A stretch of 64,000 nucleotides of DNA. Origin: Gnetum montanum (Eukaryota; Plantae; Gnetophyta). The stretch is from assembly GCA_015680685.1 (NCBI GenBank), contig MNCI01001919.1:342079-406078 (forward strand), read 5' to 3'. Position 1 is the stretch's first letter. Every line of letters starts with the position of its first letter. The position numbers and the translations under genes are program-made. Shown here piece after piece: positions 2-49,700 of the stretch. The notes beneath the pieces are model-generated. The model did no database searches. It was given only the letters and a program-made list of their open reading frames with translations, and was not told the DNA's origin.

Positions 2-679
2 TGAATGATGTGATGAAGGGGAAGAAGAAGGGGATCCATCACCATGGTGATGTTTCTTGCCTTCTCTTCGGCTGCTTCGGTCTCGATCGTTGTCACGATC
101 TGCATGTCTGTCATTAGTGTGAGTGATTGTTCCTACAGCGAACAGCTTGTGCTCACGGGGATCAGAGCCTGGAATGTGTATCGTTGATCTAAGGCCCTGA
201 TGCCTAACCTTTTCAGTAGAGTGAGGAGGAGGAACATCATTTTCCAAGAAACCCGTTGTGAGGGGTTCCTCGTCTCCTATTTCACTAATGACGTGGGAAA
301 CCTTGCCCTTCAGTAGTGAATGTTGGCTCTCCTGCCTTGCATCCCGAATACGTTGGGCGTTTGTGGGTTGATAGTCCCTTGTATCATGGTCATCCAAAAC
401 GTATTCTGCGAACAGCTCATGCATGCCAATCTGTACCAAGGCACGGAAAAGCATGTTGGGAGCGGATCGATCTGGGGGTAACACGATGTTACCTTGCATG
501 TCTCTCCACCGCAGTTGCTCATCTTGATGGAAAACAAAGGTAAAATCCGGCACATACTCATCGGGATGAGTATATGTGACCTTAGATTGTTGAGGACATG
601 GTTGATCTCGGTTATGCGTATGATGCTGACTTTCTCCTGTATTGTCCTTAGGTGAGTTGATTTCGTGAGAAGAAGCCAT
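2..679 (-). CDS. gag: N-terminal part of gag(-pol) ORF of young Athila-type element Y (runs off window edge)
   Basis: ATG at 679 lies ~130 nt downstream of the PBS. Manual translation MASSHEINSPKDNTGESQHH...PDFTFVFHQDEQLRWRDMQGNIVLPP...GSPSSSPSSHHS has no stop for 226 codons. It is absent from the ORF track because there is no stop in the window. Homologous to the decayed ORF starting at 3493 (NFTFILHQDKQLCWRDMKGNIVL). Confidence 0.85.
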   Translation of the reverse strand, partial: MASSHEINSPKDNTGESQHHTHNRDQPCPQQSKVTYTHPDEYVPDFTFVFHQDEQLRWRDMQGNIVLPPDRSAPNMLFRALVQIGMHELFAEYVLDDHDTRDYQPTNAQRIRDARQESQHSLLKGKVSHVISEIGDEEPLTTGFLENDVPPPHSTEKVRHQGLRSTIHIPGSDPREHKLFAVGTITHTNDRHADRDNDRDRSSRREGKKHHHGDGSPSSSPSSHHS

Positions 680-806: not shown

Positions 807-824
807 TCCCCGGCAACGGCGCCA
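807..824 (-). promoter_or_regulatory. Primer-binding site, tRNA-Asp (Athila type)
   Basis: Minus strand TGGCGCCGTTGCCGGGGA is an 18-nt complement of the plant tRNA-Asp(GTC) 3' end, 1 nt from the LTR end. Confidence 0.92.
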
Positions 825-1106
825 ATGATGAGTGGCGAGGTACCCCTACACTCCACCATACGAATACGAGCGTACACGCGCGATCCGGTCGAACTCCGCA
901 GACTAAATGCCTTAACGCCACAAGAAACACTTGGGGTTAATCGTTCGTTGTCTTCCCAGGCTTGCTTGTATGTGTCACGGTGTATGGTTAAGCAAGTCTG
1001 AGGTATGTGATTTTTTTGGTATTTTCGGCTTATCTTCTATGCTACCAGGAGAAAGGGTTGAGAAAACTAAACTAACTCTAACTAAGATCTAAGTCTAAAT
1101 TAACTA

Positions 1107-1531
1107 GCGTCAGCATCCGTTCCCACTTGCCGGACACACCCTGAACTATGCAACTGCAGCTTACCAAACGCTAATCGTTACTGGGATCGCCACACGTAAC
1201 GCAAGTGCTCGAAGTGGTCGTACTGAGGCACCTATTTAGCCTACGTGTGATAAGCAGCCGATTCCTTAGCCAGCCGTACACACCCGTGGGTGCTCGTAAC
1301 TAAGTCGTACTTATCACACGATCTAGCCTAGCAATGAGCAGCCGATTCCTCAACTAGCCGTACACATTAGACCCGGGAGTTACCAAGCGCAGAATCCTGG
1401 AATACGCTACTGGGTTACCAAGCATCCAATGCTCGTAATTGAGTCGTACTCATGCATTGCGTCAAGCAGCCGATTCCTTGACTAGCCGTACACGTCCGTA
1501 GACGCTCGTAATCAAGTCGTACTTGAACGCA
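1107..1531 (-). ncRNA. Array of four covarying cis-acting RNA stem-loop motifs in the U5/leader of LTR Y
   Basis: Units at 1107-1229, 1244-1320, 1331-1460 and 1458-1531 share near-invariant loop sequences while their paired stems differ compensatorily (see findings). Confidence 0.7.
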
Positions 1532-1599
1532 CTAGGAAAGCAGGAAATAAAGCAATAAATGAAACCACGTGCTGCAAGGTTTATCCAAACAAGTTCGTC

Positions 1600-1780
1600 T
1601 TTATTGCCGTACACAACTTGGGTTCAGGTTACAAGCTGCTCGAATAAAGAGCCGTTCACTCTAGGACTCCTACTGCGGGCACATGGGGAAAAATTCTAAC
1701 TCTGGAGTGATCAATCTGCCAGAGCTTCGCTACACTAGCCAGGATTAGAAAATGAAGGGAGTGCCGCCTCTTATTTATAG
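1600..1780 (-). promoter_or_regulatory. TATA box (1771-1780) and AATAAA polyA signal (1600-1605) of LTR Y
   Basis: Minus strand CTATAAATAA lies ~50 nt inside the LTR start, with GGCAATAAAGAC downstream. Both are also present in the old LTR O (cctatataa ~2578; gacaataaagac ~2754). Confidence 0.6.
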
Positions 1781-1831
1781 AAATGGTGGCGGGACGCGAT
1801 ATCGCGGCCTAGTGTAAATCGCGTCTCATCA

Positions 1832-2476: not shown

Positions 2477-3345
2477 GTGTGTCAATGGGCATGCATCGAC
2501 ACAGCCCATCGACACAGCCTCCTTGACATATTCCCATCAAGGCATGGTTACATGCATTGATGTAGATGTAGGTCAAGCCTATATAATTGCATGCATCCAT
2601 CACATTTATGGCACTTTTAGTTAGTAGTATAGAAAAGTTCTTATGGTTTGTTCTTTTATTAGAATATTTTCCATCTAAGTGCCTATAATATGAATTAAGA
2701 GATTGCATGGATCTTTATTCAAGCATCATATACATAAACACTTTGATATGAATGACAATAAAGACAAGACTTCTGATATTCATTGTAGCACTTAAATTAG
2801 ATGAATCTTTCTTAATTAGTACTTTACATGCTTTTTGCATTCTGTGTTATAGTAATTAAAGTAATTAATATAATAAATAATGAACACATAAGTATGACCA
2901 CTTTGAGCATAGCATATAATGCTTGGTAATCCCAACAATGGACATTTGGTATGCCATGTAATTATTACTTGGTAACCCAGTAGTGTTAATACAAGTTCAA
3001 GATATGTACAACAAGTATGTACAGATACTTATGTTAGGATACTTATCTTTAGAACCATGAGATAGTTAGAATAGTTAATTATCAACCATTCATCTTTCCA
3101 CCCAACAATTAAGCTAAAAACGTATAAAAAATATAAATATAAATAAATATCATATTTCTAACTCATACTTAACCATACATAAGAGCATACAAAAGTGAGA
3201 GTTAGGATGATAATGATCATACACTTCCTTTAGTCACATTTTTTGTCTATAGGAACACTTAGGAGCTAAGTCCATGAAATTTGACTAGATTTCTAGCGCA
3301 TGCTTATGATTTGTCTGGTTGGGTGTAGGGACTACTTGTTGCTCA
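2470..3345 (+). repeat. Decayed 5' LTR of O
   Basis: Collinear similarity to the reverse complement of 826-1831 (TATA, tctttattc, aataaagac, ggtgtaggg..ctca end). Start position uncertain. Confidence 0.65.
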
Positions 3346-3349
3346 GAAT

Positions 3350-3367
3350 TGGCACCATTGTCAAGGA
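3350..3367 (+). promoter_or_regulatory. Decayed tRNA-Asp PBS of O
   Basis: tggcaccattgtcaagga derives from TGGCGCCGTTGCCGGGGA by transition mutations only, and follows the LTR end. Confidence 0.75.
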
Positions 3368-3492
3368 CTTAGTTAGCTATGTGCATAAAGTAGAAAAAGA
3401 TAGTGACATTATACAAAGATTTTTTAAGGACTAATCAATGATAAATCATTAAGAAAATAAGGGTAAGCACAATATTTTTTGCAAAAGCTAAC

Positions 3493-6400
3493 ATGGCTTC
3501 TTCTCATAGGGATAAATCTCCACTATTTATAGGTAGAATCAATCAAAGATAGGAGTCTAAAAAATGCCCTAACAACTTCGTGTTGTTTACATCCATCTAG
3601 ATCCCTACAATCTAAATTTCACTTTCATCCTACATCAAGACAAGCAACTATGTTGGAGGGATATGAAGGGAAACATTGTGTTATTTTCTAATTGATCTAT
3701 TCTTACCATGCTGATGAGTAATCTCATCAGGCTTGTCATCAATATACTTAACATAGAGTATGAGGTTCAAGGCCATGCTTACTAGTATTATCACCCCATC
3801 AATGTCTAACAAAATAAGGATCAACATATGAAGGCATGATATGAGACATCTAAGGGTAAGAGGATCCCTCCTTTCTATGATGAGAAGATCCTTAACTAAA
3901 GGTTGTAGTTAACTATGGAAAACCTAGGTGAGGGAAAGAATGATTTTTAAGACTAGGGGGCCTGAAAAGATAACAACCATAGCCACTCATTTAAAAGCAA
4001 GGATAACAACAGCATAAAGATCAAGACAAGTAAGTTGATTGGGATAAGGCTTGAAGAAGAAAAACTAGTAAGGATCATTCTAGTGCTGGTCCTCCTTTTA
4101 TCTCATCCTCATCATCATCCTCATTATCTTTCTCCTCCAACTATGACAAGAGGAGTAGAGGTTAAGTGAGGAAAAAGAACAACTAAAATTGGGATGAAAA
4201 TTAATGATTGGATAGGTATGAACATAGATCCTATTAGTATGAATGAGAAAAAGAATAATGACAACAAAAAAGGGTAGACTATCATCAAGAAAGAAGGCAT
4301 AGCAAGACTTATCATAGAATCATGACCATGATTGGGATCACTAAGATCATTATGACTATGATGATCCTCTACTGGCTACCTAAAACATGTTGAACATTTC
4401 AAAGGAAATTAGAATTCCAACAAGGCACTTTGAATGATAGTCAAATCAAGAGGTTGGATATGAACAATATTTCTAGGTTTGAAGGAGGATACAATTTAGA
4501 TCCATAAAATCATGATCAAGCCTTTCATGATGCTTGTGTCTTATAGAACAAAGAGAATGAATGACAGAAGCTAAAATTATTCCCAAGGATACTCATCAAG
4601 CAAGCTACAAGCTGGTACTAGTCCTTAGGATTAGAGTCCATTTGCTAATGAAGTACTATATCAGAGCTTTTGATGACAAATACCAAATGTACTCTAGAGT
4701 GTCCAACTTTTAGAGATAGATATAAGTATGGAAACAAGGTGATAATGAGTGTGTGGATGCAACCTTTGGCTTGTTCTATTCTTTTTTGCACTAATGCCTA
4801 GGCCATGGATACTTTTAAAGGGGTCAGCTACACCATATCATAGATGGGCTTAGAAATGAAATAAGGAAAACTCTTGAAATCTATGTCCAAGGTAGACTTT
4901 CTGAGCTATAGGTCCATTAGATCTAGGCTAATAGATTAGGTGGCCAAAGAAAAATATGGGCTTAAAAAGTAAGAGAATGTAGAAGAATATAATGGGGACA
5001 CCTCCATTTGCAAAAGGAGGGGGCGGGGGGTGGTTGGTGGTGCATGGGGGGTGCATTTCTGTGATGCTTAAGAGGAGGCACCACTTGATGAAGTTGTGTA
5101 GAAGAAAATCTTATTGATATGAAAATTTTTCATCAAAATATCAGCTAAGATAGAAAAAATGTGAAACTCCTTTAATGAGAAGTTTAAAACAACTTTTAAA
5201 ATTATAGAGGAATGAAGAGATTAAGGAACTAGTGGTTAAGAAAGTAGGAAGAAAAAGGATGCAGACATAGATATTGTAAGAACAAGGATAAAGCAACAGT
5301 AGTAGAGGAGGTTGTAGATTCTAAAATAGATGATGATGGCTATGACATTTGCCAATATGAACATCCTAAGGAATGTTGCCCAATGGTATCATATCTATAA
5401 GAATCTAGGATTTATGCTTTAAATTCTAGATTAGCAAAATGGTAAGCACCCAAGAGATTACCATATTCACAAGGAAACTATAGGTAATAGATCTATGAAA
5501 AAATGTATTATAAAAGTAAAGCGCCTCCTCAAACCTTAAAATTAGTATTAGTAGCGTAAACACCCATAGTCATGGGGGATTCCACCACTATGGAAGCAAT
5601 ATTCTTATCGGTAAATTGATCCTCATGGATACTATTTTCAGTAGCCTATATCTCCATTTGACTCATCTAGCCATCCCTCATTCCTTTACCATTACTACCC
5701 TCTAGAATACAATAGAGAACCTTCTCCAAGGGGGAGCCTCCTTTTCCCTTCCATCCTCATCAACATCCATCAATTCTTGCACCACAACTAACTACATCCT
5801 TTTTACTTACTCCATCCATACAGGGTGAAATGCATGCATAACCACAACAAAAAATTCTACAAAGGTAGTGAATCTATAGTCAAGTATCTATTTGAGTGGT
5901 CCTAAACTCAAGTCTTACAAAAGACCATTCTTTAGAACTAGCAGTCCCATGAAATCCTCATAAACACCTATGGTTGCCAACCTTGTTGCTCCTATCTCTG
6001 AAGATTCTACTAAGCCATCTTCAAACTAAACATCTTTCCAAATCCATACTATCATGTTAAACTATGCAATCATAGATTAGATAAATACTAGCCACTTTTC
6101 AAGAAAATAATTTAATCCTAGGAGTCCCTTCATCTACTTACAGATTGTAGGAAATGAACCATGTAAGGCTCTCTTAGATTTGACTTTCAGAGTTAACTTT
6201 GTTTTCCAAGAAATGTACAAGGCTTGGAACCTACCTCCTTTGAAAAGGAGCAATATCAAATTGAAGCTTGAAGATTAGTCCATCACTATCTCTTTGGGGC
6301 TAGTAGAGGACATTATGTCCATCATTTGTGGGTGGTCCTATCTTGCTAATTTTCTTATGATCCATGTAGAGAATTGTAAGGGTGAATTTCTTATTATTAT

Positions 6401-9400
6401 GGAAAGGGCATGAATAAGAAAAATGAATGCTAGAATTGGAATTTGAAACCTTTCCTTAGAAATTTCCAAGGAAAATGAATTTGATAAAGTTGAGAAGAAG
6501 AGAGTTCCATGCATCGCATATAGTAACATAGGGTGCCATTGCATGTAGAAACTATGGACCATCAAAGATACATTACTTTAATAATGTAATTAGGATGCTA
6601 AAATAGTAGTGATTCAAAGGTTCTTTTATGTAGTAGCCACAGAAGAGGAAGATACCTAATGACTGATAATAGATGACCAAATTGAATCAACTATGTGCAT
6701 GGAACCAGTTGAGAGCCTTACCAACATCTATGTTGAATACATGGATAAAATGGAGTAGCTCCATTTCTAACTCTTTAATGCATAAAGTGTAATGGATTAT
6801 AGAGAGTTGAAGATCTTTGATAACTTCAAATAAGAGCCCCTTGAACTAAAGGTGTTATCAGTAGGCATGGAATATATTTTTCTCAATAATGATAAGTCGA
6901 TGATCATTAATGCTAGACTTGCTCCTAAATAAAAATAAAAATTACTGAATGTGGTGAAAAAATGGCCAATATAATTTTCTTGGTTATATCATGACCTGAT
7001 AGAAATAGATCCATGGATATACCATCACCATATCTAAATAGACTCCTCCATCAAGCCAAAGAGACAACTACAATGATGATTGATCCCCAAACTCAAGTAG
7101 GTGGTTAAGGAGGAGATTGAACAACCTTTCAAGGCTAGGTTAATCTACCTAATTAAAAATAACTAATGGGTTAGCCCACTTGTTATTATTCAAAAAGAAA
7201 TAAATAAAATTAAGGGTTTGCATAGAATTTTGGCTATTGAACATGGCAACTTACAAAGACCACTTTCTATTGCCATTTGTGGACCAAGTATTGGATACCA
7301 TAGTCGGGCATTGCTACTATAGCTTCTTGGATAATTAATGTAGCTATAACCAAGTCTAGGTAGCACTAAAGGACTAGGCCAAAACTAAATTCAAAAGTCC
7401 CTAGGGGACTTTTGCATATAGGAAGATGTCCTTTGGCCTATGAAATGCTCTTGATACACTCCAATGGTTGGTCCTTAGCATCTTTTAACAATAAATTGGT
7501 AGTGGGATAGAAGTATTTATGGATGACTTTTCTACCTATGGGGATACATTTAAGTGAGCCTTCGACTAACTTAAGCAAGTACTTCAAAGACATGTAGAGA
7601 CCTATTTGAGGCTCAACTAGCAAAATGGCCATTTGATGATCCAAGAAGGTAATGTCTTATGGCACAGAATTTCTAGCAAAGGGATTGAGATGAACTCAGA
7701 AAAAGGTACAAGTTATCCATTTGATCATTAAATAAATATAAATGGTAAAAGATATTAGGTCATTCCTTTTTCAAACTAGTTATTACATGTGCTTCATTGA
7801 TAACTTCTTAAAAATCACTAAACCATTGGTGGAACTAACAAGGAAGGATGCATCATTCACTTAGACTAGGGAATGTGAGAGTGCTTTCTAATAGTTAAAA
7901 TAGAAGCTCATAGAAATTATAATTCTATGGGCACTAACTAATTTTGGCCATTGCACATCATGATTGATGCATCCAATTATTCTTTGGGAGCCATGCTTAC
8001 ATTGAATAATTAGAAATGTTTCTACTACATCCATTATGCAAACCAAAGCATTATGAATGCATAATTGAACTACATCATCATTAAAAAGGAGCTCATGATA
8101 GTGATATCAAGTTTTTGTGCACATGGACCATAATGCTATTTGGTTTTTCATGAACAAAATAATGATGAGTCCCTGTGTCATATAGTGGCTCATGATTCTT
8201 TATGAGTTTGACCTTACTAGGGTGGAAAGAAAGGAGACCAAGAATGTGGTTATTGACCAGTTGGCTTGGTTATGATGGAAAAAACAAATAGGATGAAGGA
8301 CCATTATTTGATCAATTTCTAGATGAACTTCTCTTTGCTAGAGTTATTGAAGTTTAAAATCCAAAAGATTGTAACTAGTATGATTACATCCTCTTCTACC
8401 TACTTACCCAAGAGATTCCACATGAATGGAATAGTAGGAAGAAACAAAAATTTCTTCACTAGGCCAAACACTACATGGAAATCAAGAGCAACCTCTATAA
8501 GAGCTATGTTGATGGCTTGGTATGATGGTGTATACCTAAGGCTAAACAACTTTGAGTCCTCTAGAATGCTCATGAAGGCCCTTGTGGGGGCCACAGTGTT
8601 GGGAAAAGAACAACCATTAAAATCCTTAATGTTAAGATATTGCTAGTCCATGATCTTTAGGGATACCCATAAGTTCTTCTTTTCATTTGATAGATGCCAA
8701 AGAGATGAAGGGATGACTGCATGGATGGAAGGGCTCTAATAGTGAATTCAACCATTAGAGCCTTTTGATCTTTGGGACATTGACTTCATGACATTCATCA
8801 ATCCCATGTATAATGAAAATGTGTTCATCATCATTATTGTTGACTACTACACTAAGTAGGTTGAAGTTGCTACCATCACTAATTTTTCTTCCTCTATGGA
8901 GGCATGGTTTATACAACAAAATTTGGTAAACAGGTTTGGTATGCTAAGGGTACTAATTTCTAATAGTGAATTACATTTTATAGATGTTAGTTTTCAAAAA
9001 CTTATGCAATGCTTGGGGGTAGAACACAAACTCACAACTCCATATGACCCCCATGTTAATGGCTAAGCAAAGGTCATTAATAGGGAATAACTAAGATACT
9101 AACATGTACAATTAGTAAGTATAGGAAGGATTAGAGCACCAAAATCAACAATGCTCTTTGGGCTTATTGGTTGGCTTGGAAACTTCCTATATATTATTTC
9201 CATTATGAGTTAGTGTATGGGAAAATTCCAACTCTTCTTATCTAGGTAGAGCTATGTAAACTTTTAAAAGCTTCCGAACTTGATCTTGATTTGCATCTAG
9301 CCCAAAGAGAAATATTAATGACATTAAATATACTAGAAAAAAATGATTAGTAGTCTTATCCATGAATGAATTGCATAAGGCAACAATAAATAATGTCATG

Positions 9401-9612
9401 ATCTCAAAATAAGAAAAGTTAAATTTCAACTAGGAGATAAGGTTATCTATTGGAATTTCATGCATGTACCCCAACACACAAAGTTTCAAATGCTATGGGA
9501 AGAATCTTTCATCATTCATATAATGTTTTCATCTGGGACCATGGTTTACGAGATTGCTAGCCCAAACAAAAAATTATTGATGAACATGCAACAACTCAAA
9601 CCTTTCCTAGAA
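3493..9612 (+). pseudogene. gag-pol: Decayed gag-pol of O (gag ~3493-6000, PR ~6130-6450, RT ~6950-7800, RH ~7950-8250, INT ~8550-9612)
   Basis: Recognisable remnants: KDHFLLPFVDQVLDTIVGHCYYSFLD (RT), IMIDASNYSLGAML (RH), HEGPCGGH..DRCQR and WDIDFM (INT), FQMLWEESF (GPF-like). Confidence 0.85.
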
Positions 9613-10310
9613 TTAAGGGTAATTAGTGGTAAGAACATCTCAACTAATGGCCAAGTACATTCTAACTTTTAGATCTCCTCCCTTCCACTTAGTTGTGGGG
9701 GAGATGGCCATTTATGCTAAGATCTTGTAATAGCTCCTAAATTCTTGAACTCTTTTATTACACTATTCTTTATGTATTTTTCATTTTCTTGAGTATTTTG
9801 CAACTTATTTTAGATATTTTTCCTTGTTTAACTTTTCTTACATGTGTTTTCTTCTTTATCACCATCAAGACTTTGGTGCTTAATATGGTTGCTAATTACT
9901 GGAAGTTCAATTGAACTATACTGCATATCTAGATTGACTACTTAATAATTAGATTTTATCTTTGGATATGACATTGATTTTCTTATGGTATCAGGTAGCA
10001 ATATCATGTCATCCAACCATTCCACTCATCTCCATGGAGTTATTTTATCTTGGAAGCATGAGGTCACTTCTTAATTACATATTATAAAAAAATTAGTGAC
10101 CTTGATACTTAAAGAACTTAGAATGAATTAAGTAGGATAGATAAGGGTGTGGCTTCAAGGGGACTTATCATGTTTTGTACCTACCTACCTTCTTGAGTTT
10201 TATGGGTACTCTCATTGATCTCTCATCATTCCTATTGTCAACCATTAATAGGAAGACTGTCTTTGCATGATTTTGTTACCATAATAAAAAATAAGAAAAA
10301 AAAAACATGA

Positions 10311-12371: not shown

Positions 12372-14451
12372 TAAAACACCATCAATTTTGGGCTCTCATG
12401 GCTCAGCATGAGATTTGCTCAAGGATGATGGGCTACATAGATCGCGTGGCACCCCAAAAGTCCAAACACCTACAAAGTTCTCTTTGAGCTTGTTTGCTAC
12501 ACTCTTCAGCACAGTCAACGTAGCACCTAGTTACAAAGGGGGCAGTGCAGGTGGACCATATAGTTTCCAAAATTTTGTATCTCTTGGGTTGTCCTAGTTG
12601 TCAGTCCACCTAAGTACCAGGCTAAGAGAAGTCAAAAGTATTCAGGATGTGCAATGGAAAATTTTCTATTTTTGACCTGTTATGCTACACTATGTTGCAT
12701 AGCATAGACAATGTAGCAGGCCATGCGGTGCTAAAACTTTTTCTAAGTGTTGAACCAAACATAGAAGATGCATTTGGGTAATTTTTTAACTTCCAAGTAT
12801 GCCTATCCTACTGCATCCTTGGAGTATGGTCAACGTGACATGGAAAAATCTAGCAAGTGGCATAAAAGTCATCCTATTTTAGGTGCTATGTTGCACAGCG
12901 TAGCATAGCGTAGCAGGGTGCCAACATTAACAAAATCCTCCTTCAAGTTATTTTGACATGGAAAATGCACTTCATCATTCTTTGATCTCCAAAGTTTCCT
13001 ATCCCACTTCACCCTCAAAACATGGCCAAGGTCCCATGGTAGAGCATTGTAGATTAAGTTAAAATTCATGCAAAATCAGGTGTTATGCTATGCTACACTA
13101 CATGGCATAGCACAACGTAGTAGAGATATCAAAGCTGAAAAGTGTACTAAAAATGAAACTGGAAGATCTCAAGCTCTTTTGACATGGAAAGCATGGTTGT
13201 CAATTGTTGAAGTTGCTTGTATTTTTGGGTCTTGAAATGATATTTTCAATTTCTGACAACATTCATTCACAAAGGGGGTGCTATGTTGTGCTATGCTATG
13301 TAGCGTAGCACAACGTAGCAAGCTAGTGTTCATGCTACTTTTCTATGCTAGATAGTGTAGACAACATAACACTTGAGAAGAAGTCTTAGAACCTCTCCAG
13401 AAATTCTAGAACTTGTCGTCAATAGTCATTTCTACTCCAGCATCCCCTCAATAGCCAAGATCAGTAGTTTGGTTTGTTTTTGCACCCCTTGTTGATCCCC
13501 AAAAGTTGACCCTATTCGAAAGAGAAGGGAAGATGTAGTCCCAGAGCATTGGCTCCAATTTGCATTTGTTATAGCCATCTTGTAAAAATGTGGCAATCTC
13601 AGATTTTGGCACATGTAGTCTGGGCAATGTGGACATAGTTGGACAGCTGTTCCTGCTCTTGCTCTTGTTCCATTTGGAATAGCATATTAATGTAGCACCA
13701 CACTTTGAGTGTAGCACACTGGCATGACACATCTACATTCATGCTACGTGGGACCCAAGACACGTGGCATCCAAACCACATCCCTTTCTCAATGCTAGGC
13801 TCTATAAATATCCCAGTAAATGACATTCTAAGGGTTGGCTTTTGTAGTTGGATTTGGTAGAAGATTGACAAGTAGAAGGTTGATGAGTGGAAAATCCCAA
13901 CATTAGAGCCTCTCAAATCTCTCTTCAACTCTAGTGTAGTAGCTCTCTATCTAGTAAGGATAAGCTCATTCATGCCTGCTAGCACCATGTCTATAGCATC
14001 CCAGAAGCTATGACCATATTGCTCCGTTGCCCAGCTTTATCTGTCCAATGCTACTCTCTAGTTTTAGACATCCATCATTCAATAAAAAGTCAAGTTTTCC
14101 AATCTCGGGGTGTTGCATTTTCTTACTCAAATTCTCATTTTACTTTTCTAAAGCATACATGTTGCACTATCTTGTATTTATTTGTGTTTATTGCCACTGT
14201 TATGTACATTGATATGCTTCTACTATTGTTCATGCTACGTTCTTACTTGTTTCAAATTCTACGTGTAACATGCTAAAAATATTGTTTGCAAATGGTAATT
14301 GAAAACCATGTAAATCCCTATCTAATCAACTAGACCATTCAGGGTGCCCCGTTTTCATTTTCTCTAGCACAACCCTCCTGTGAACTCGGGGTTAGATTGT
14401 GCACTTGATAACCTCTTAGTGTTCCAGCCACCAATGTTTTTGGATGCTATA
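12372..14451 (+). repeat. A LTR copy 1 (~2.08 kb)
   Basis: t(g/a)aaacacc...gcta(t/c)a termini, TATA ctataaata ~13802, homologous to 41118-43224. Confidence 0.9.
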
Positions 14452-14457
14452 GTTTTT

Positions 14458-14484
14458 TGGCATTAAAAGGAGGGCTTGAACCTC
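14458..14484 (+). promoter_or_regulatory. tRNA-Asn PBS (first copy) of A
   Basis: tggcattaaaaggagggcttgaacctc is a decayed complement of the plant tRNA-Asn(GTT) 3' end, the Tat1-type primer. Confidence 0.75.
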
Positions 14485-15039
14485 TTTTCTATCTATTATT
14501 GGTATTCTTACATGCTTTCTACACCCTCATCAATAGCAAAAAGCTAATGTAGACATAATGCCCTTGTGGACCTGCTATGGCAGTAGCTGGCTCTTAAGCT
14601 AACATAGGAGTGGTCCACGTTTATGTTGGTGTAGATCGGTCCCTATTGATGATTCCATTGGAACCCCCGTAGGATGAAAAGCCTAGCATTATCTAATGCA
14701 TTATGTTATTTTTGTTCCACATAGCATAGCATGAATAGTGTAACACCTACAACGTAACACTTTTCTCTAGCGTAGCAGTTCCCTCCAGTGTAGCATAATA
14801 GTATAAACTACTATTTTTGGTAGTTTCTTCAGACTTTCTCATCTTTGTCTATTTAGGTACATTAGCTCAAAGGTTACTATATTTCACCATTTTCCATTGA
14901 TTGCTGTATTATGCACCCCCTCTTTGCCACAATAAGAATGAATCCACAAAATACCTCCCTTGTCACTTTGGGCTTGGAAATAGCTCATGATGGATAGGTG
15001 ATACATCTTTCGAGATTTCTATATGGATAGGTGATACAC

Positions 15040-16952
15040 CTATCAAAATGCCTAAAAATTTCTCTCTGAGTCTATCTACTATGCTCTTTAGCACAATCAG
15101 CATAGCACCTAGTTACAAGGCTAGTTTGCATAAAGGGGGCACTGCGGGTGGACCATACAATTTGCTAAATTTTGTATCTATTAGGCTGTCCCAGTCGTCG
15201 ATCCACCCAAATACCAGGCTAAGAGTAGTCAAACATGTTTAGGATGTGCAAAATAGTTTAGGAAATTTTCTATTTTTGACCTATTACGCCATGCTATGCT
15301 ACACAGCGTAGCAGGCCATGCGGTGCTGAAACGTTTTCTAAGTGTTGAACCAAAAATAGAAGATGCATTTGGATAATTTTTTGACTTCCAAGGATGCCTG
15401 TCTTGCTACTTCCTTGGAGTATGGTTAGCGTGACATGGAAAAATCTAGCAAGTGGAACCAAAGTCATCCTATTTTGGATGATATGCTATGCTACGCTGCA
15501 CAACATAGCATAGCGTAGTAGGGTGCCAACATTAACAAAATCCTCCCTCAAGTTATTTTGACATGGAAAATGCACTTCACTATTCTTTGACCTCTAAAGC
15601 TACCTATCCCACTTCACCCTTAGAACATGGCCAAGGTCCCATGGCTGAGCATTGCAGATTAAGTCAAAATTCATGCAAAATCGGGTGTTACGCTGTGCTA
15701 TGCTACACAACGTAGCAGAGATATCAAAGCTGAAAAGTGTCCTAAGAATGAAACTGGGAGATCTCAAGCTCTTTTGACGTGGAAAGCATGGTTGCTAATT
15801 GTTGAAGTTGCTTGTCTTTCTGGGTCTTGAAATGATATTTTTAGTTTTTGACAACATTGATTTGCAAAGTGGGTGCTATGCTATGGTACGCTGTATAGCG
15901 TAGCACAACATAGCAAGCCAGTGTTCATACTACTTTTCTATGCTGGACAATGTAGACAACGTAAAACTTGAGAAGAAGCCTTAGGACCTCTCTAGAAATT
16001 CTAGAACTCATCATCAATGGTAATTTCTACTCCAGCATCCCCTCAATAGCCAAGATTAGCAATTTGCTTAATTTTTGCACCCCTTGTTAATCCCTAAAAG
16101 TTGTCCCTATACTTAACCCTACTTGAAAGAGAAGGGAAGACGTAGTCCCAGAGCATAGGCTCCAATTTGCATTTGTTCTAGAAACTCTTGTAAAAATGTG
16201 GTAGTCTCAAATTTTGGCACATGCAGTCTGTGTAATGTGGTCATAGTTGGACAACTGTTCCTACTCTCACTCTTGTTCCATTCAAAATAGCATATCAGCA
16301 TAGCACCATACTTTGAGCATAGCACACCAGCATGACACATCCACATTCATGCTATGTGGGACCTAGGACATGTGGTGTCCAAACCACATCTCTTTCTCAA
16401 CTTTGGGCTCTATAAATAGGCCAGTAAATGACATTCTAAGGATTGGCTTTTGCAATTGGCTTTGGTAGAAGATTGGCAAGTAGAAGGTAGATAGGCGGCA
16501 AATCCCAGCATTCCAAATCTCTCTTCAACTCCAGCGTAGCAACTCTTCATCCAGCAAGCATCAGCTCATTCATGCCTGCTTACACCACATCTGTAGCATC
16601 CTAGAAATTGTGCTCATATTACTCTGTTGCCCAGCTGTGTTTGTCCAACGCTGCTCTCCAGTTATACACATCCATCATCCAGCTGTGTTTATTACTACTA
16701 TTATGTACATTGATACGCTTCTACTATTGTGCATGCTATGTTCTTACTTGTTTTTGCTTTTACATGTAACATGCTAAAAATATTGTTTTCAAATGTTAAT
16801 TGAACACCACGTAAGTCCTTGTCTAATCGACCAAACCATTCAAGATGCCTCATATCTATTTTTTCTAGCATGATCCTCCCATGGACTCGGGGTTAGATTG
16901 TGTGCCTGATAACCTCTCGGTGTTCCAGCCACTAACATTTTTAGATGCTACA
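15040..16952 (+). repeat. A LTR copy 2 (5'-truncated by ~75 bp)
   Basis: Collinear with 12450-14451 and followed by a PBS. Confidence 0.88.
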
Positions 16953-16958
16953 AGTTTT

Positions 16959-16987
16959 TGGTGTTAGAAGGAGGGTTTGAACCTCCG
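16959..16987 (+). promoter_or_regulatory. tRNA-Asn PBS (second copy) of A
   Basis: tggtgttagaaggagggtttgaacctccg immediately after the LTR. Confidence 0.8.
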
Positions 16988-17499
16988 TTCTATCTATAAT
17001 GGGTAGTCCTACATGCTTTCTACACTCTCATCAGTAGCAACAAGCTAACATAAACATAACACCCCTATGGACCTACTATGGTAGTAGCTAGCTCTTAGGC
17101 TAGGGCAGGAGTGGTCCACATCTGTGTCGGTGTAGATCAGTCCCTGTTGACGGTTCCACTGGAACCCTTGTAGGATGAAAATCCTAGCATTTTCTACTGT
17201 GTTACATTATTTTTGTTTTGTGTAGCGTAGCATGAATAGTGTAACACCTATAACGTAACACTTTTCTCCAGCATAGCAGTTCCCTCCAGTGTAGCATAAC
17301 AATGTAAACTACTATTTTTGGTAGTTTCTTTAGACTTTCTCATCTTTGGCTATTTAGGCACGTTAGCTTAAAGGTTACTATATTTTACCATTTTCCATTG
17401 ATTGCTATATTGTGTACACCCTCTCTAACACAAAAAGAATGAGTCCACCAAATACCATGCCTGCGACTTTGGGCTTAGAAATAGCTCATCCCCTACAAT

Positions 17500-27287: not shown

Positions 27288-27519
27288 AAGTCCAGCGTAT
27301 AGGATGCAGGTTTCTCAATTTGCTTAGTGTGGTCTGCCCCAATTTTTGCCAAGATGCTTACCATTTTTGAACCTGGATCTGGTCAAAAATTGAAGTTTTT
27401 ATACGGGTTTCGACGTTAGACCTAGGTCTGAAAGGGGATGAGTCATTGTAAGGTGAGAAAAATTTGGATCGGGAGACAGGTGGTGCATTGATTGAGTGCA
27501 GGATATGTTGCAACTGTAT

Positions 27520-27783
27520 AGTGTATAGCATGCCAGCATACAGCATGTTAGCATACAGGATGCCAGCATATAGCATGCCAGCGTATAGCATGCCAGCGTA
27601 CAGGATGCCAGCGTAGAGCATGCCAGCGTAGAGGATGCCAGTGTATAGCATGCCAATGTATAGGATGCCAGTGTATAGGATGCCAGCATACAACATGCCA
27701 GCATATAGGATGCCAGTGTATAGGATACCTGCGTAGAACATGCCAGCGTACAGGATGCCAGCGTACAGCATGCCAGCGTACAC
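27520..27783. repeat. 15-bp minisatellite (G(C/G)ATGCCAGCGTATA consensus, ~17 copies)
   Basis: Directly visible. It produces repetitive ORFs in three minus frames. Confidence 0.95.
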
Positions 27784-27829
27784 CAAAAATGTACCCAACG
27801 TACACACATGAAAATGCTTCATTTTAAGG

Positions 27830-41117: not shown

Positions 41118-43224
41118 TGAAACACCATCAATTTTTGGCTCTCGTGGCTCAGCATGAGATCTACTCAAGCATGATGGGCCACATAGATCACGTAGCACCT
41201 TACAAGTCCAAATGGCTACAAAGTTCTCTCTAAGCCTGTCTACTATGCTCTTCAACATAGTGAGTGTAGCACCACTTACAAGGCTAGTTTGCACAAAGGG
41301 GCACTGTGGGTGGACCATACAGTTCACCAAATTTTCTATCTCTTAGGCCATCCTAGTCGTTGGTCCACCCAAGTACTAGGCTAAGAGCAGTTAAAAGTGT
41401 TTAGGATTTGCAAAATAGTTTGGAAAATTTTCTATTTTTGACTTGTTATGCTATGCTACGTTGCACAACGTAGACAGTATAGTAGGCCATGTGGTGCTGA
41501 AACTTTTTCTAAGTGTTGAACCAAACATAGAAGATGCATTTGGACAATTTTTTGACTTCTAAGGATGCCTATCCTACTGCATCCTTGGAGTATGGTTAGC
41601 ATGACATGGAAGAATTTGGCAAGTGGCACAAAATTCATCCTATTTTGGATGCTATGCTGTGCTACGCTACACAGCATAGCACAACATAGTAGGATGCCAA
41701 CATTAACAACATCCTCCCTCAAGTTTTTTTGACATGGAAAACACACTTCACCATTCGTCAGCCTGCAATGCTGCTTGTCCAACTTCATCCTCAGAACATG
41801 GCCAAGGTCCCATGGTAGAGCATTGTAGATTAAGTTAAAATTCATGCAATATTGGGTGCTACGCTGTGTTGCACTACATAATGTAGCACAACATAGCAGA
41901 GATATCAAAGCTAAAAAGTGTCCTAAGAATGAAATTGAGAATCTCAGGCTCTTTTGACATGGAAGGCATGGTTGCTAATTATTGAAGTTGCTTGTCTTGC
42001 TAGGTCTCAAAATGATATTTTCAATTTTTGACAACATTCATTCACAAAGGGGTTGCCACGCTGTGTAGCGTAGCACAACATAGCAAGCCAGTGTTCATGC
42101 TACTTTCCTACACTGGACACCGTAAACAGTGTATCACTTGAGAAGAAGCCTCAAGACCTCTCCAAAAATTCTAGAACTCATTGTTGATGGTTATTTTTGC
42201 TCTAGCATGCCCTCAATAGCCAAGATCAGTAGTTTGCTTTATTTTTGCACCCCTTGTTGATCCTCAAAAGTTGTGCCTATGCTTGACCCTACTCGAAAGA
42301 GAAGGGAAGATGTAGTCCCAGAGTGTAGGCTCCAATTTGTGTTTGTTCTAGACACTCTTGTAAAAATGTGGTAGTCTCAAATTTTGGCACATGCACTCTG
42401 GGTAATGTGGTCACAGTTACATAGTTGTTCCTGCTCTCGCTCTTGTTCCATTCAGAATAGCATATCATCATAGCACCACACTTTGAGCATAGCACACTAG
42501 CGTGACACATCCACATTCATGCTATGTGGGACCTAGGACACGTGGCATCCAAACCATGTCACTTTCTCAAAACTAGGCTCTATAAATATCCTAGTAAATG
42601 AAATTCTAAGGGTTGGCTTTTGCAGTTGGCTTTGGCAGAAGGTTGGCAAGAAGAAGGTTGATGAGCGGCAAATCCTAGCATTAGAGCCTTCCAAATCTCT
42701 CTTCAACTTGAGTGTAGCAACTGTCTGTCTAAAAAGCATTAGCTCATTTGTTCCTACCAGCATCACATCTGTAGCATCCTAGAAGTTGTGACTGTATTGC
42801 TCTGTTGCTCAGTTGTGTTTGTCCAAAGCTGGTCTCTAGTTGTACACATCCATCATTCAATCAAGAGTCAAGTCCCCCAATCTCGAGGTGATGCATTTTC
42901 TTGAATTCTCATTTTACTTTTCTATAGCATACATGTTGCACTATCGTGTATTTATTTGTGTTTATTGCCACTATTATGTACATTGATACGCTTCTACTGT
43001 TGTGCATGCTACATTCTTACTTATTTCAACTTCTATGTGTAACATGATAAAAATATTATTTACAAATGTAATTGAACATCATGTAAGTACTTGTCTGATT
43101 GACCAAACCATTTAGGATGCCCCATTTTCATTTTCTCTAGCACAATCCTCCTATAGACTCAGGGTTAGATTGTGCACCTGATAACCTCTCAGTGTTCTAG
43201 CCACTGACATTTTCAGACACTACA
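41118..43224 (+). repeat. 3' LTR of A (PPT aaagaggggct at ~41105-41115)
   Basis: tgaaacacc...actaca, homologous to 12372-14451. Confidence 0.9.
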
Positions 43225-46059: not shown

Positions 46060-46725
46060 TGATTTTAAGGTCCTAGTAGACCACATGTTGTGCTAATTTA
46101 AGGTCCTAGTAGATCGTGAACTTAGTTTAAGGTCCTAGTAGACCATGATATGCTAGTTCATAGTCCTAGTAGACTATTGTGTGCTAGTTTAATGTCATAG
46201 TGGATGGTGGATGTTGTGCCACTTTAACGTCATGACGCAAGGATGAACTATGCTAGTTTATAGTTATAGTGGACTCTCTATTTCTATTTAACATCATAGA
46301 AGATGCTCTGTGCTAGTTTAATGTCATAGAGGATGCTCTGTGCTAGTTTAACATCATAACGGATGCTTTGTGCCAGTTGATAATCATAGTGGACTCTCTG
46401 TGCCAGTTTGACATTGTAGCAGATGTCCTATGCTAGTTTAATATCATAGTAGACTCTTTGTGCTAGTTTAACATCGTAGTGGATTTTTTGTGCTAGTTTA
46501 ACATCATAGCAGATGCTCTATGCTAATTTAACATTGTAGCAGACTCTCTGTGCTAGTTTAACATCATAGCAAATACTTTGTGCTAGTTTAACATTATAGT
46601 AGATGCTTTGTGCTAGTTTATAGTCATAGTGAACTCTCTGTGCTAGTTTAACATTATAGTAGATGCTTTGTGCTAGTTTATAGTCATAGTAAACTCTCTG
46701 TGCTAGTTTAACATCATACAGGATG
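46060..46725. repeat. ~30-40-bp tandem array in the 3' UTR of D
   Basis: More than 15 copies of a tgtgctagttta(acat/tagt)catag-like core. Confidence 0.93.
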
Positions 46726-46764
46726 CTTGCTTACCTTAATTTTTCATTGATGTAGCATTGTGTA

Positions 46765-49700
46765 CTAGGCATAATACATATTTAAGTATGAATGGTTGAT
46801 CGGATTAGTAGACTCTTTGCCATCTAAGCCAACAAGCTTGAATGCTCTATTTTCATAGGCCTTGGAGACCAAGAAAGGCCCTTTCTAGTTGGCTAAGAAT
46901 TTATCCAGGGGTTTTTGAATGACCTTGAGAACTAAGTACCCCTCTTGATTGAGTGTTGATGCTGATTGTGGTGGTGCTTTTACCATTGCTTTTCTTGGTA
47001 CCATGCGATGTGGTTAAGTGTCTACATGCGCTTCTTCTCTATAGAGTTGAGATCAATGATTCTCAACTCGTTGTTCTAAGCCTCATCAATGAAGCTTGAG
47101 AAGATCACATGGAGCAATGAGACCTATAATTCAAGAGGCAAAATCACTTTAGACCCATACACAAGGCTATATGGTGTCTTACCTATTGTTGTTCTGCATG
47201 TTGTGCAGTAGGCCCATAGTGCATAGACTAGTTGCTTGTTCCATCATCGTTTGTTGATACTAAGCATCTTCTTTAGAAGGTTCATGATGACTTTGTTTAT
47301 ATCCTCTTCTTGTCCATTCACCTATGGGTAGTATGGTGATGAATAGGAATGGTTAATGCCAAGGTGTTCATAAAAGGCCTTGGTTTCTGCACTACTAAAC
47401 TGTGGCCCAGTGTCTATGACTATAGTCATGGGTAAAACAAATTGGGTCACTATGTTTTCAAGGATGAATTTGAAAACCTATTACAATGTTATTTTCCTAA
47501 GGGGAATAGCCTCAACTTACTTGGTAAAGTATTTGGTTGTAGTTATGATGAAGCTATATCCTGTGAAAGACTTAGGTGTGATAGGTCCTATGATATTCAA
47601 CCCCCAATGTTGGAATAGCCACATAATCTATGTGGTGTGTATTTCAATGGGTGGCACATGCATTATGTTGTAATTCCATTGATACACATCACATGTCTTG
47701 ACCTTGGAAATGAAATTGTGCTATATGTAAGGCCAATAGTAGAATAAGCATTTGATTTTCGATGCCATTACCTTGGGTGCTATGTGACCTTCGCACCATC
47801 CCTCATGAACTTGATAAATGATCATTTGCACTTTGCTATCACTAACATAGGTTAGTAGTATGCCATTATAAGATCTATGACATAGTGTGTTATCACCTAT
47901 GAGGACATACTACTGTGACCATTTTCACACTACATATTTTTGGGTAGTGGCTACATGTTGTTAAAGCTCACCATGTTGAAGGTACACCTTAATGTCATCA
48001 TACCATTCTTTTGCATGAGTTGTGCTTATTGTGGCTACGAATGAAATGTTAGTTATTTTTGTAATAGGCTTAGTGAAATCCATTACTGAGGCAAGCAAGG
48101 CATGAAACATGTTAGGTGCAATGTTTAAGGTTAAGGTGGCTAATGCGTCAATAATGGTGTTCTCATTATGAGGAATGTGTTGGATATCTATGGTTGCAAA
48201 TTGTTTGAGAAAGTGATTTGTCAAGTTGCAGTAAGGCTGTAAATGTTATGATTTGCAAGCATAAACCTCTGTAACTTCATTAACAACTAACTATGAATTG
48301 CCTCAGATCACTAGGTTTTGGATTCTTAAATCATAGGCTACTAAGATGCCTCTAAGGAGACCCTTGTACTCTGCTACATTGTTGGTGTAAGGAAATGCAA
48401 ACATGATTATAGTAGTAGCATTACCTCCTTGAGAGGTTGAAGCACCATTAAAGTGTAAGACTACCTCAAAGTTGGTAGGAACTTGGCTTATGCTACTAAT
48501 ATGCTCATTCAGAAATTTTTAATCTATTGTTGCTTGGTCATTTATTGTGAAGCTGTGAGTTGTGTAGCTATTTCTTGACCTTTAGTTGATGCTTGTGCTA
48601 TGTAGTGCAAATCAAACTTTGTGGTTACTACTTTCCACCATGCAAACTTACTACTTTTGTAAATGTTTATGATGATTGCTCGAAGTACATTACTTTTGTA
48701 GATGATGTTTAGCTAACTGTAGTAAAGATAGTGCCTCCACTTCTTAAGCATAAAGACAAAGACAAGGTAATTCTTTTCCACATTGTTGTATTTTTCTTCA
48801 TGGTCCACTAATGCATGGCTTAGGTAGTATATAGGATGTTTAAGCCATCATCTCACTTTTGGCAAAGTAGAGAGGTAATGGACATGTTGGAGGTTGCAAG
48901 GTAGATGTGGAATGGTTTATCTCCTTGTAGAGGGTAGACTGTAGGAAGTTGAGCCAACTCTTGTTTAAGGTTATCAAATGCCTCTTGGCATTAATTAGTT
49001 CACTCGAAGTGGACTCCCTTTTTGAGTAGATGGTGCATTGGATGTAGCTTGTTAGTTATGTAATAAACCTACAAATGAATTGCAATCTACCTTGTAACTC
49101 ATGTAGCTCCTTAAGGTTAGTTGATGGTGCTATGTTGATAATGACCTTAATCTTATCAGGGTCTACGTGTGTGCCTACTTTTGATACTACGAAACCTAGC
49201 ATGCGACCCATCTTAACATCAAAGATACAATTCTTAGGATTTAATCTAAGGTCATATCTTAGGAAATGTTTGAGTATGTAGTCTAAGTCATCTACATGGT
49301 TGTGTGTCATTTTGGACTTAACTACTATGTCATCAACATAGTCATTAAGCAAATCCAACAAGTAATCACTAAAAATGTATGTTATGGTGCATTGATAGGT
49401 TGCTCCTATGTTCTTTAGTCTAAAAGGGATTATTGTATAGTAAAATGTACCCCAAGGGGTAATGAAGGTAGTACTGAGTTGGTGCTTCAGGTTGATACAA
49501 ATATGGTTGTAACCAAAGAACCCATCCATAAAGGACAACAAGGCATGACTAGCTGTAGTATTGATGAGTTGATCAATACTAGGCAGTAGAAAATTATCAT
49601 TAATCGTCACCTTGTTTAGGTCCCAAAAATATATGAAAATGCATATAATTCCATTTTTCTTGGGTACAACCATGATGTTGGAGACCTAGTCTATGTAGTT

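Follow-up and report, generated by a model that had tools for sequence, protein, structure and literature searches.

At one end of a 64,000-nucleotide stretch of Gnetum montanum DNA (the window), a long terminal repeat (LTR) carries a series of short units with near-identical linkers and differing stems, and the question raised by this locus is what such an array does in a retrotransposon. A preliminary description had taken it for a four-copy RNA structure under selection rather than a simple tandem duplication. Our results showed that the array is a real, selected RNA structure and a new variant of the known cis-acting RNA elements of LTRs. The features discussed below are collected in Table 1.

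Table 1. Coordinates of the array, its host element and the older neighbouring element within the window
Feature	Coordinates	Strand	Description	Basis
Unit 4	1462..1526	-	Full bulged rod; c(UACG)g tetraloop at 1500-1497	Pairing, covariation, folding
Unit 3	1334..1453	-	Full rod; apical insert with two UUGGUAA words (1421-1415, 1386-1380)	Pairing, covariation
Unit 2	1244..1320	-	Full rod; 11-bp P1; c(CACG)g tetraloop at 1288-1285	z -4.2, pairing, covariation
Unit 1	1110..1226	-	Looser variant; apical insert with one UUGGUAA word (1167-1161)	Model match, homologue in older element
Fifth module	1598..1650	-	Half-size (CG-AG opposite UGUA-CG-GC), on an 8-bp stem	Model match, descriptor scan
U-rich tract	1551..1559	-	Complementary to hexamer; alternative partner in some folds	Pairing up to 0.72
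5' LTR	826..1830	-	1005 bp, complete; high-copy Ty3/gypsy, probably Athila-type	Sequence; 7-bp terminal inverted repeats
TATA-like box	1774..1779	-	About 50 nt from LTR 5' end; putative promoter	Only TATAAA in LTR
Primer-binding site (PBS)	807..824	-	tRNA-Asp/Asn type, 18 nt, 1 nt past LTR end	Sequence
ORF	2..679	-	At least 226 codons, starting 128 nt after PBS, open to window edge	Start at 679
Older poly(A) hairpin	2712..2764	+	In older decayed related LTR; AATAAA at 2757-2762	Alignment, z -3.2
Older unit-1-type module	2886..3034	+	Single module of older LTR	Alignment

Host LTR and its older neighbour

The host LTR is of the TG...CA form. Loose contig ends accumulated at 826, and depth was more than 20-fold lower past 1827, in each of the four DNA runs. 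Copy number in the family is very high, with 68,000-106,000 contigs placed per run. RNA runs X19 and X20 represented a small share of the window, and X19 contigs occurred over all 30 bins, as contigs that show neither strand nor transcription. The TATA-like box stands 174 nt upstream of AATAAA, a distance of 177 nt in the older neighbouring element. Immediately upstream of this box lies a palindromic CpG-rich stretch (1794-1806). More than 400 contigs per run diverged from the window sequence at 1806, so that U3 differs among subfamilies. A separate long hairpin occupies the 3' part of U5 (949-1008); its match to a microRNA family was at chance level (E 0.068).

The first 13 letters of the PBS are identical to the 13-mer given for ATHILA in a section of bioRxiv 10.64898/2026.03.20.713144 and for FIDEL in a section of PMC2844528. 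The element is likely Athila-type; this call comes from the PBS, the reverse transcriptase (RT) lying outside the window, and REXdb lineages are defined by RT/RH/INT according to an excerpt of PMC6317226. For pine Gymny, the excerpt of PMC2633040 gave no information on LTR structure. The ORF is likely a Gag N-terminus or an extra 5' ORF. It contained a short basic stretch but no Pfam domain, no Atlas match and no recognisable Gag or RNA-binding domain, the rest of the element being outside the window. Homologue searches returned one relative of 111 aa, an unnamed fragment, and otherwise none, and the ORF displayed 40% identity over 98 aa to the first ORF of the older neighbour. Scans of viral contigs with the PBS and the ORF found nothing.

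The right flank of the LTR is similar to the interior of the older element. This relative (2560-10000, plus strand) lies head-to-head with the element and displays a CpG observed/expected ratio of 0.11, versus 1.09. It contains an LTR, a decayed PBS near 3350, a homologous first ORF, and protease-like and integrase-like fragments, the integrase match being weak (E 0.048); a homologue search with this relative returned none. It aligned to the LTR far above shuffles; its decayed module copies were not found in register by the covariance model of units 2-4 and were placed by alignment. Elsewhere in the window, tandem arrays of 15 nt and 30 nt occur within other retroelements (27477-27815 and 46191-46784), and another LTR-like repeat, in which palindromic tracts are rich in TGCTA, has three copies at 12500-17000 and 41300-43200. 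Neither the covariance model nor the descriptor used for the RNA module matched this repeat.

The repeated rod and its strand

On the minus strand, P1 is followed along the rod by U·G and A-U pairs, then by a GC bulge, CGA paired with UCG and a GAA bulge; P2, which is lengthened by three pairs, comes next, and another GC bulge, CG/CG and an AG/UGUA loop lead on to P3. Each full unit comprises two sub-modules, in each of which a bulge of 2 nt and a CG/CG pair of pairs are combined with an asymmetric loop. The stems P1, P2 and P3 originally proposed for units 2-4 were recovered: in the alignment of these three full units of one LTR, all 72 cells pair and 9 of the 24 pairs are changed on both sides. 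Only P3 of unit 2 had to be redrawn, from 5 bp around a 2-nt loop to 4 bp closing a tetraloop. No shuffle out of 500 matched this pairing, in a comparison that ignores relatedness and uses a structure derived from the sequences being tested; partners slid out of register were only 17-40% paired.

The same alignment bore out the compensatory stems and near-invariant linkers. Variable columns amounted to 18 of 28 in stems versus 1 of 33 in linkers (Fisher p 1.5e-7), and all 12 linker CpGs were kept, which indicates that the units did not drift evenly after duplication. The linkers of units 2-4 had three occurrences in the window versus none in 100 shuffles, and Tandem Repeats Finder did not report the units. 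The rejection of a simple tandem duplication was right, according to the column distribution, but the arms of units 2-4 (1247-1529, minus strand) follow each other in the order X, X', X, X'. Covariation thus also exists between P1 and P2, and homogenisation of the arms is a possible source of part of the pattern. This arm symmetry may reflect either a structural switch or such homogenisation. Eight of the nine two-sided changes were transitions.

Unit 1 was, as first described, a looser variant, with a 4-bp P1, a 6-bp P2 and a 3-bp Watson-Crick P3, and with UGUC in place of UGUA in its loop. The covariance model of units 2-4 recovered it with 29 bits (E about 2e-5). Its P2 had a pair probability of 0.0 in a span-limited fold, and its fold therefore rests on homology and not on energy. 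Stability was ordinary for the region as a whole when compared with shuffles (z = -0.64). Among single units, only unit 2 was clearly stable alone (-4.2), with z values of -1.5 for unit 4, -0.9 for unit 3 and +1.25 for unit 1; in context, unit 3 displayed pair probabilities of 0.3-0.56.

All three UUGGUAA words were located, as expected, in the large apical inserts of two units, starting on the minus strand at 1421 and 1386 (unit 3) and at 1167 (unit 1). They form a second conserved motif and are usually followed by CCCA. Within the leader, all three GGTA[AT] words fall in apical inserts; the older element has four such words, three of them in an apical insert, and its stretch with UUGGUA words spans 2923-2975 (plus strand). 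The UUGGUAA words may serve as nucleocapsid sites with an exposed GG, or else as weak U1 sites; as U1 splice donors, they were not outstanding among 81 GT sites by a crude score.

The initial assignment of the structure to the transcribed strand was also supported. In-context pair probabilities were higher on the minus than on the plus strand for 15 of 15 helices. Four further runs provided 26 substitution rows between 1236 and 1535, of which 22 fell at paired positions and 4 outside the model. The 39 unpaired core positions had no variant at all, versus 21 variable positions among the 164 paired ones (p 0.009). Taken singly, the 22 rows kept the pair in 14 cases on the minus strand and in 9 on the plus strand, these rows being unphased, drawn from mixed subfamilies and passed through an 80% likeness filter that favours contigs matching the linkers. 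Transitions at paired positions kept the minus-strand pair in 14 of 17 cases, versus 91 of 164 possible ones (p 0.02), and six variants converted a G·U into a Watson-Crick pair on that strand. The remaining eight rows, taken singly, break a minus-strand pair. In one of them, the listed changes include the partner as well (1351 with 1441). Three fall in the outer P1 of unit 4, a place of loose contig ends; two (1275 and 1284) are supported by one or two contigs per run, and the last two adjoin the indel-rich insert. YNMG-type tetraloops, c(CACG)g in unit 2 and c(UACG)g in unit 4, occur on the minus strand only and are presumably of the stable YNMG/UNCG class. A structure of the plus strand, or of single-stranded DNA, was rejected since the corresponding folds share nothing common between units 2 and 4. 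Altogether, the evidence supports a structure belonging to the transcribed minus strand, where variants in other copies favour G·U.

Searches for a known counterpart covered RNA families, sequence collections and the literature. In Rfam 15, no family reached its gathering threshold, in line with the novelty first suggested: the best match (21.9 bits versus a threshold of 57) was outside the units, and 1240-1660 gave one chance match. Scans with the 5' half of the motif gave 1 viral and 82 metagenome matches, none of the 83 with the 3' half in place; scans with the 3' half gave 12 prokaryote matches and 1 viral match, none of the 13 with the first linker. The covariance model matched none of the 60 loci examined out of 96, the 36 omitted being mostly repeats of the same chance matches; these viral, metagenomic and prokaryotic collections say little about plants. 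K-turn, sarcin-ricin and hairpin-ribozyme loops were rejected by eye against their consensuses, as the required letters do not stand opposite each other. In the literature covered, with most subscription journals and supplements outside it, the motif was undescribed, and no account was found of how plant LTR retrotransposons avoid termination in the 5' LTR or select RNA for packaging; one LTR survey was unable to model the LTRs of plant Metaviridae, according to an excerpt of PMC3601003.

A fifth module at the poly(A) hexamer

The four units announced were all present, and a fifth, half-size copy was found beyond their coordinates, at the hexamer AAUAAA (1605-1600), which lies in the 3' arm of its 8-bp outer stem. 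The covariance model of units 2-4 gave this copy an E of 0.077. A strict descriptor of the inner module matched five times in 64 kb, all five within this LTR, and in none of 30 shuffles; a looser one added two matches outside the LTR, at shuffle level. The hairpin had a z of -2.0. Five of the six hexamer bases were predicted to be paired at all six transcript lengths tried. In two of these, the hexamer paired mainly with the downstream U-rich tract, an alternative not evident in the older element and reaching a probability of 0.72 at some lengths. The fifth module is thus predicted to be a hairpin that occludes the poly(A) signal.

The hexamer would be the poly(A) signal and would lie in R, being the only AATAAA of the LTR and having a conserved spacing from the TATA-like box. 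The array lies between this hexamer and the PBS, as already noted, and the R/U5 border is placed by inference between the hexamer hairpin and the array. According to parts of PMC12789967, PMC3694450 and PMC2664473, retroviruses with the signal in R must suppress its 5' copy, the means including promoter proximity, upstream elements, a stem-loop and U1 snRNP. The presence of a module on the hexamer stem is the best clue to the function of the array.

The hairpin was also retained in the older element, with 32 of 34 cells paired and 4 of 17 pairs changed on both sides (28 of 500 shuffles were as high). Its 8-bp hexamer stem is letter-identical, and its inner arms are changed yet paired. In the unit-1-type module of that element, P1 has other letters yet pairs over 7 bp, the insert contains three UUGGUA words, and P2 and P3 are partly decayed. 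In the two inner modules of the older element, the CG/CG core pairs are changed on both sides and still pair. Joints in family contigs at 1220-1523 skip or repeat whole units. Loose contig ends suggest that, in some relatives, one or two units with other P1 arms stand between flanks that are the same.

Functional readings and known systems

We tentatively favour, as the best explanation though at somewhat under an even chance, that the five module copies are a multi-site dock for one protein, most likely Gag, that packages full-length RNA in a manner tied to read-through of the 5' LTR. Transcription would start near 1750 and the hexamer would act as poly(A) signal, which would put the fifth copy in R, at both RNA ends, and units 1-4 in U5, at the 5' end only. 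Loop letters held constant on freely changing stems would reflect sequence-specific recognition, and their repetition would raise avidity, the array being carried only by RNA in which transcription has passed the 5' poly(A) site. A protein bound to the fifth copy would also stabilise the hairpin hiding AAUAAA and link read-through with packaging. This link would parallel the HIV-1 polyA hairpin, thought to help suppress the 5'-LTR signal (parts of PMC12789967 and PMC2664473), and leader packaging signals and poly(A) hairpins have retroviral precedent (part of PMC12789967).

Docking is favoured by the fixed linkers on covarying stems, the invariance of the unpaired core and the retention of minus-strand pairs, as well as by the fifth copy on the hexamer stem and its conservation in a diverged element. 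Additive sites would also be expected to vary in number between family copies, and the variable number of units is counted in its favour. Against it stand an ORF without recognisable Gag or RNA-binding domain, the 8 of 22 unphased, likeness-filtered rows that break a minus-strand pair, an alignment of three full units of one LTR in which 8 of 9 two-sided changes are transitions, the crosswise covariation of P1 and P2 arms, and a drawn structure of unit 1 that folding does not predict. Since the array is encoded by both LTRs, it cannot alone separate the 5' from the 3' poly(A) site, which is the main weakness of any role in polyadenylation. The array also precedes the PBS, and core packaging signals of retroviruses mostly follow it.

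Two related readings attach the module to polyadenylation more directly, and we hold each of them to be possible but unlikely. The module may be a protein-controlled poly(A) switch, with one copy on the AAUAAA stem and one to four or more downstream loading the same protein; if so, an element product or a captured CFI25 would set the balance between short terminated RNA and full-length packageable genome, and U5 copy number would tune this switch between subfamilies. Alternatively, nuclear poly(A) or export control might be exerted by a host 3'-end factor (CFI25 via UGUA) or by a Rex-like protein deciding on the use of the hidden AAUAAA. The position of the module directly on the hexamer stem and the predicted pairing of five hexamer bases at all six lengths agree with such control, as does the letter-identical stem of the older element with its changed inner arms, although the A/U-rich composition of this stem protects it from methyl-C decay. 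Module loops account for 4 of the 8 UGUA words of the LTR, UGUA being the CFIm25 site (part of PMC7457121), but unit 1 carries UGUC. The LTR-borne RexRE and the structure switches of foamy viruses are precedents; yet cleavage would most likely occur upstream of units 1-4, which are part of the transcript at either LTR, and the UUGGUAA words, donor-like as they are, were unremarkable among the 81 GT sites. A switch between structures, which we consider improbable, would have the rod refold into small hairpins whose complementary loops, UACGA and GAAUCGGCUG, form a kissing contact that extends into a duplex of two genomes. The X, X', X, X' order permits a three-hairpin fold in which 38 of 42 cells pair and two-sided changes number 7, the shared P3 accounting for 3 of these. 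The first small hairpin of this fold is the minimum-energy structure of its fragment in all three units, and kissing-to-duplex transitions are known for retroviruses and discussed for Ty1 (parts of PMC12789967 and PMC6844567). The second small hairpin, however, is the minimum-energy fold in only one of three units, the rod dominates in context in units 2 and 4, and the four-arm symmetry does not extend to unit 1, nor to the fifth copy or the older element.

That symmetry is equally claimed by homogenisation, to which we give a similarly small probability: covariation would largely be a by-product of nested hairpin duplication and template switching, the linkers being kept as DNA sites for transcription factors, for instance SBP/SPL. 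The core site of SBP/SPL proteins is CGTAC, and the five modules contain 8 of the 9 CGTAC words of the LTR; the predominance of transitions among two-sided changes and the unremarkable folding energy of the whole region fit as well. Homogenisation, however, leaves unaccounted for the G·U bias on the transcribed strand, with its six variants turning G·U to Watson-Crick, the confinement of YNMG-type tetraloops to that strand, a P3 covarying independently of the four arms, asymmetric loops never corrected to perfect palindromes, and the hairpin retained in the diverged element. A role in translation, as an IRES or shunt helping ribosomes past a leader of about 1070 nt, is very unlikely; seven upstream AUGs between the presumed start and the ORF would call for one, but the array ends about 430 nt short of the ORF, Rfam gave no IRES family match, and the copy on the poly(A) hexamer would be left unexplained. 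Least credible of all, the units might each be a self-cleaving ribozyme, as first entertained. Invariant loops on covarying stems would fit, and plant retrozymes do have ribozymes in their LTRs (part of PMC11722881), but the rod is unbranched, no Rfam match and no hammerhead core pattern were found in the LTR, and four cuts in the leader would separate the cap from the PBS in genomic RNA. A retrozyme was rejected likewise, by the missing hammerhead (Rfam and pattern), a PBS of Asp/Asn type instead of tRNA-Met, and the ORF of at least 226 codons that follows; the array is neither a retrozyme nor a known Rfam family.

The module is compact (70 nt) and supported by covariation; it belongs to a family of very high copy number and has been conserved in a diverged relative. 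What makes it most interesting is its link to the poly(A) hexamer. The module makes the questions of 5'-LTR read-through and packaging testable on isolated RNA fragments and provides a structure-based marker for this retrotransposon lineage.

Among known systems, plant retrozymes share the presence of a structured RNA selected inside a plant LTR (part of PMC11722881), but the present element is coding, has no hammerhead and has a PBS other than tRNA-Met. ATHILA and FIDEL have the same PBS 13-mer directly after an LTR ending in ATCA; the available sections of their descriptions mention no RNA module of this kind, and the 5' UTR of FIDEL is 1009 bp long whereas the ORF begins here 128 nt past the PBS. 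The HTLV-1 RexRE, the HERV-K RcRE and the R-region switch of foamy viruses are likewise LTR-encoded RNA structures, tied to polyadenylation or export of full-length RNA (parts of PMC12789967, PMC2664473 and PMC3694450). They differ in consisting of one long stem-loop instead of tandem modules, and neither a clear splice donor nor a Rex-like protein was found in the part of the present element covered by the window.

Packaging and dimerisation signals in the 5' leaders of retroviruses and Ty1 are comparable in their structured leader, conserved loops and repeated small motifs, and two units display NACG-type apical loops here. Moloney murine leukaemia virus (MoMLV) has a GACG hairpin pair in its leader. 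The array is distinguished by its location wholly inside the LTR, upstream of the PBS, and by a double-bulged rod of variable copy number in place of a palindromic loop or hairpin pair. The closest parallel to the fifth module is the polyA hairpin in R of HIV-1 and other lentiviruses, where AAUAAA also occurs shortly downstream of the promoter and within a hairpin. There, the hexamer is in the loop according to the model in part of PMC2664473, whereas it is predicted here to form a stem arm, in a plant element where the same internal-loop module recurs four more times downstream.
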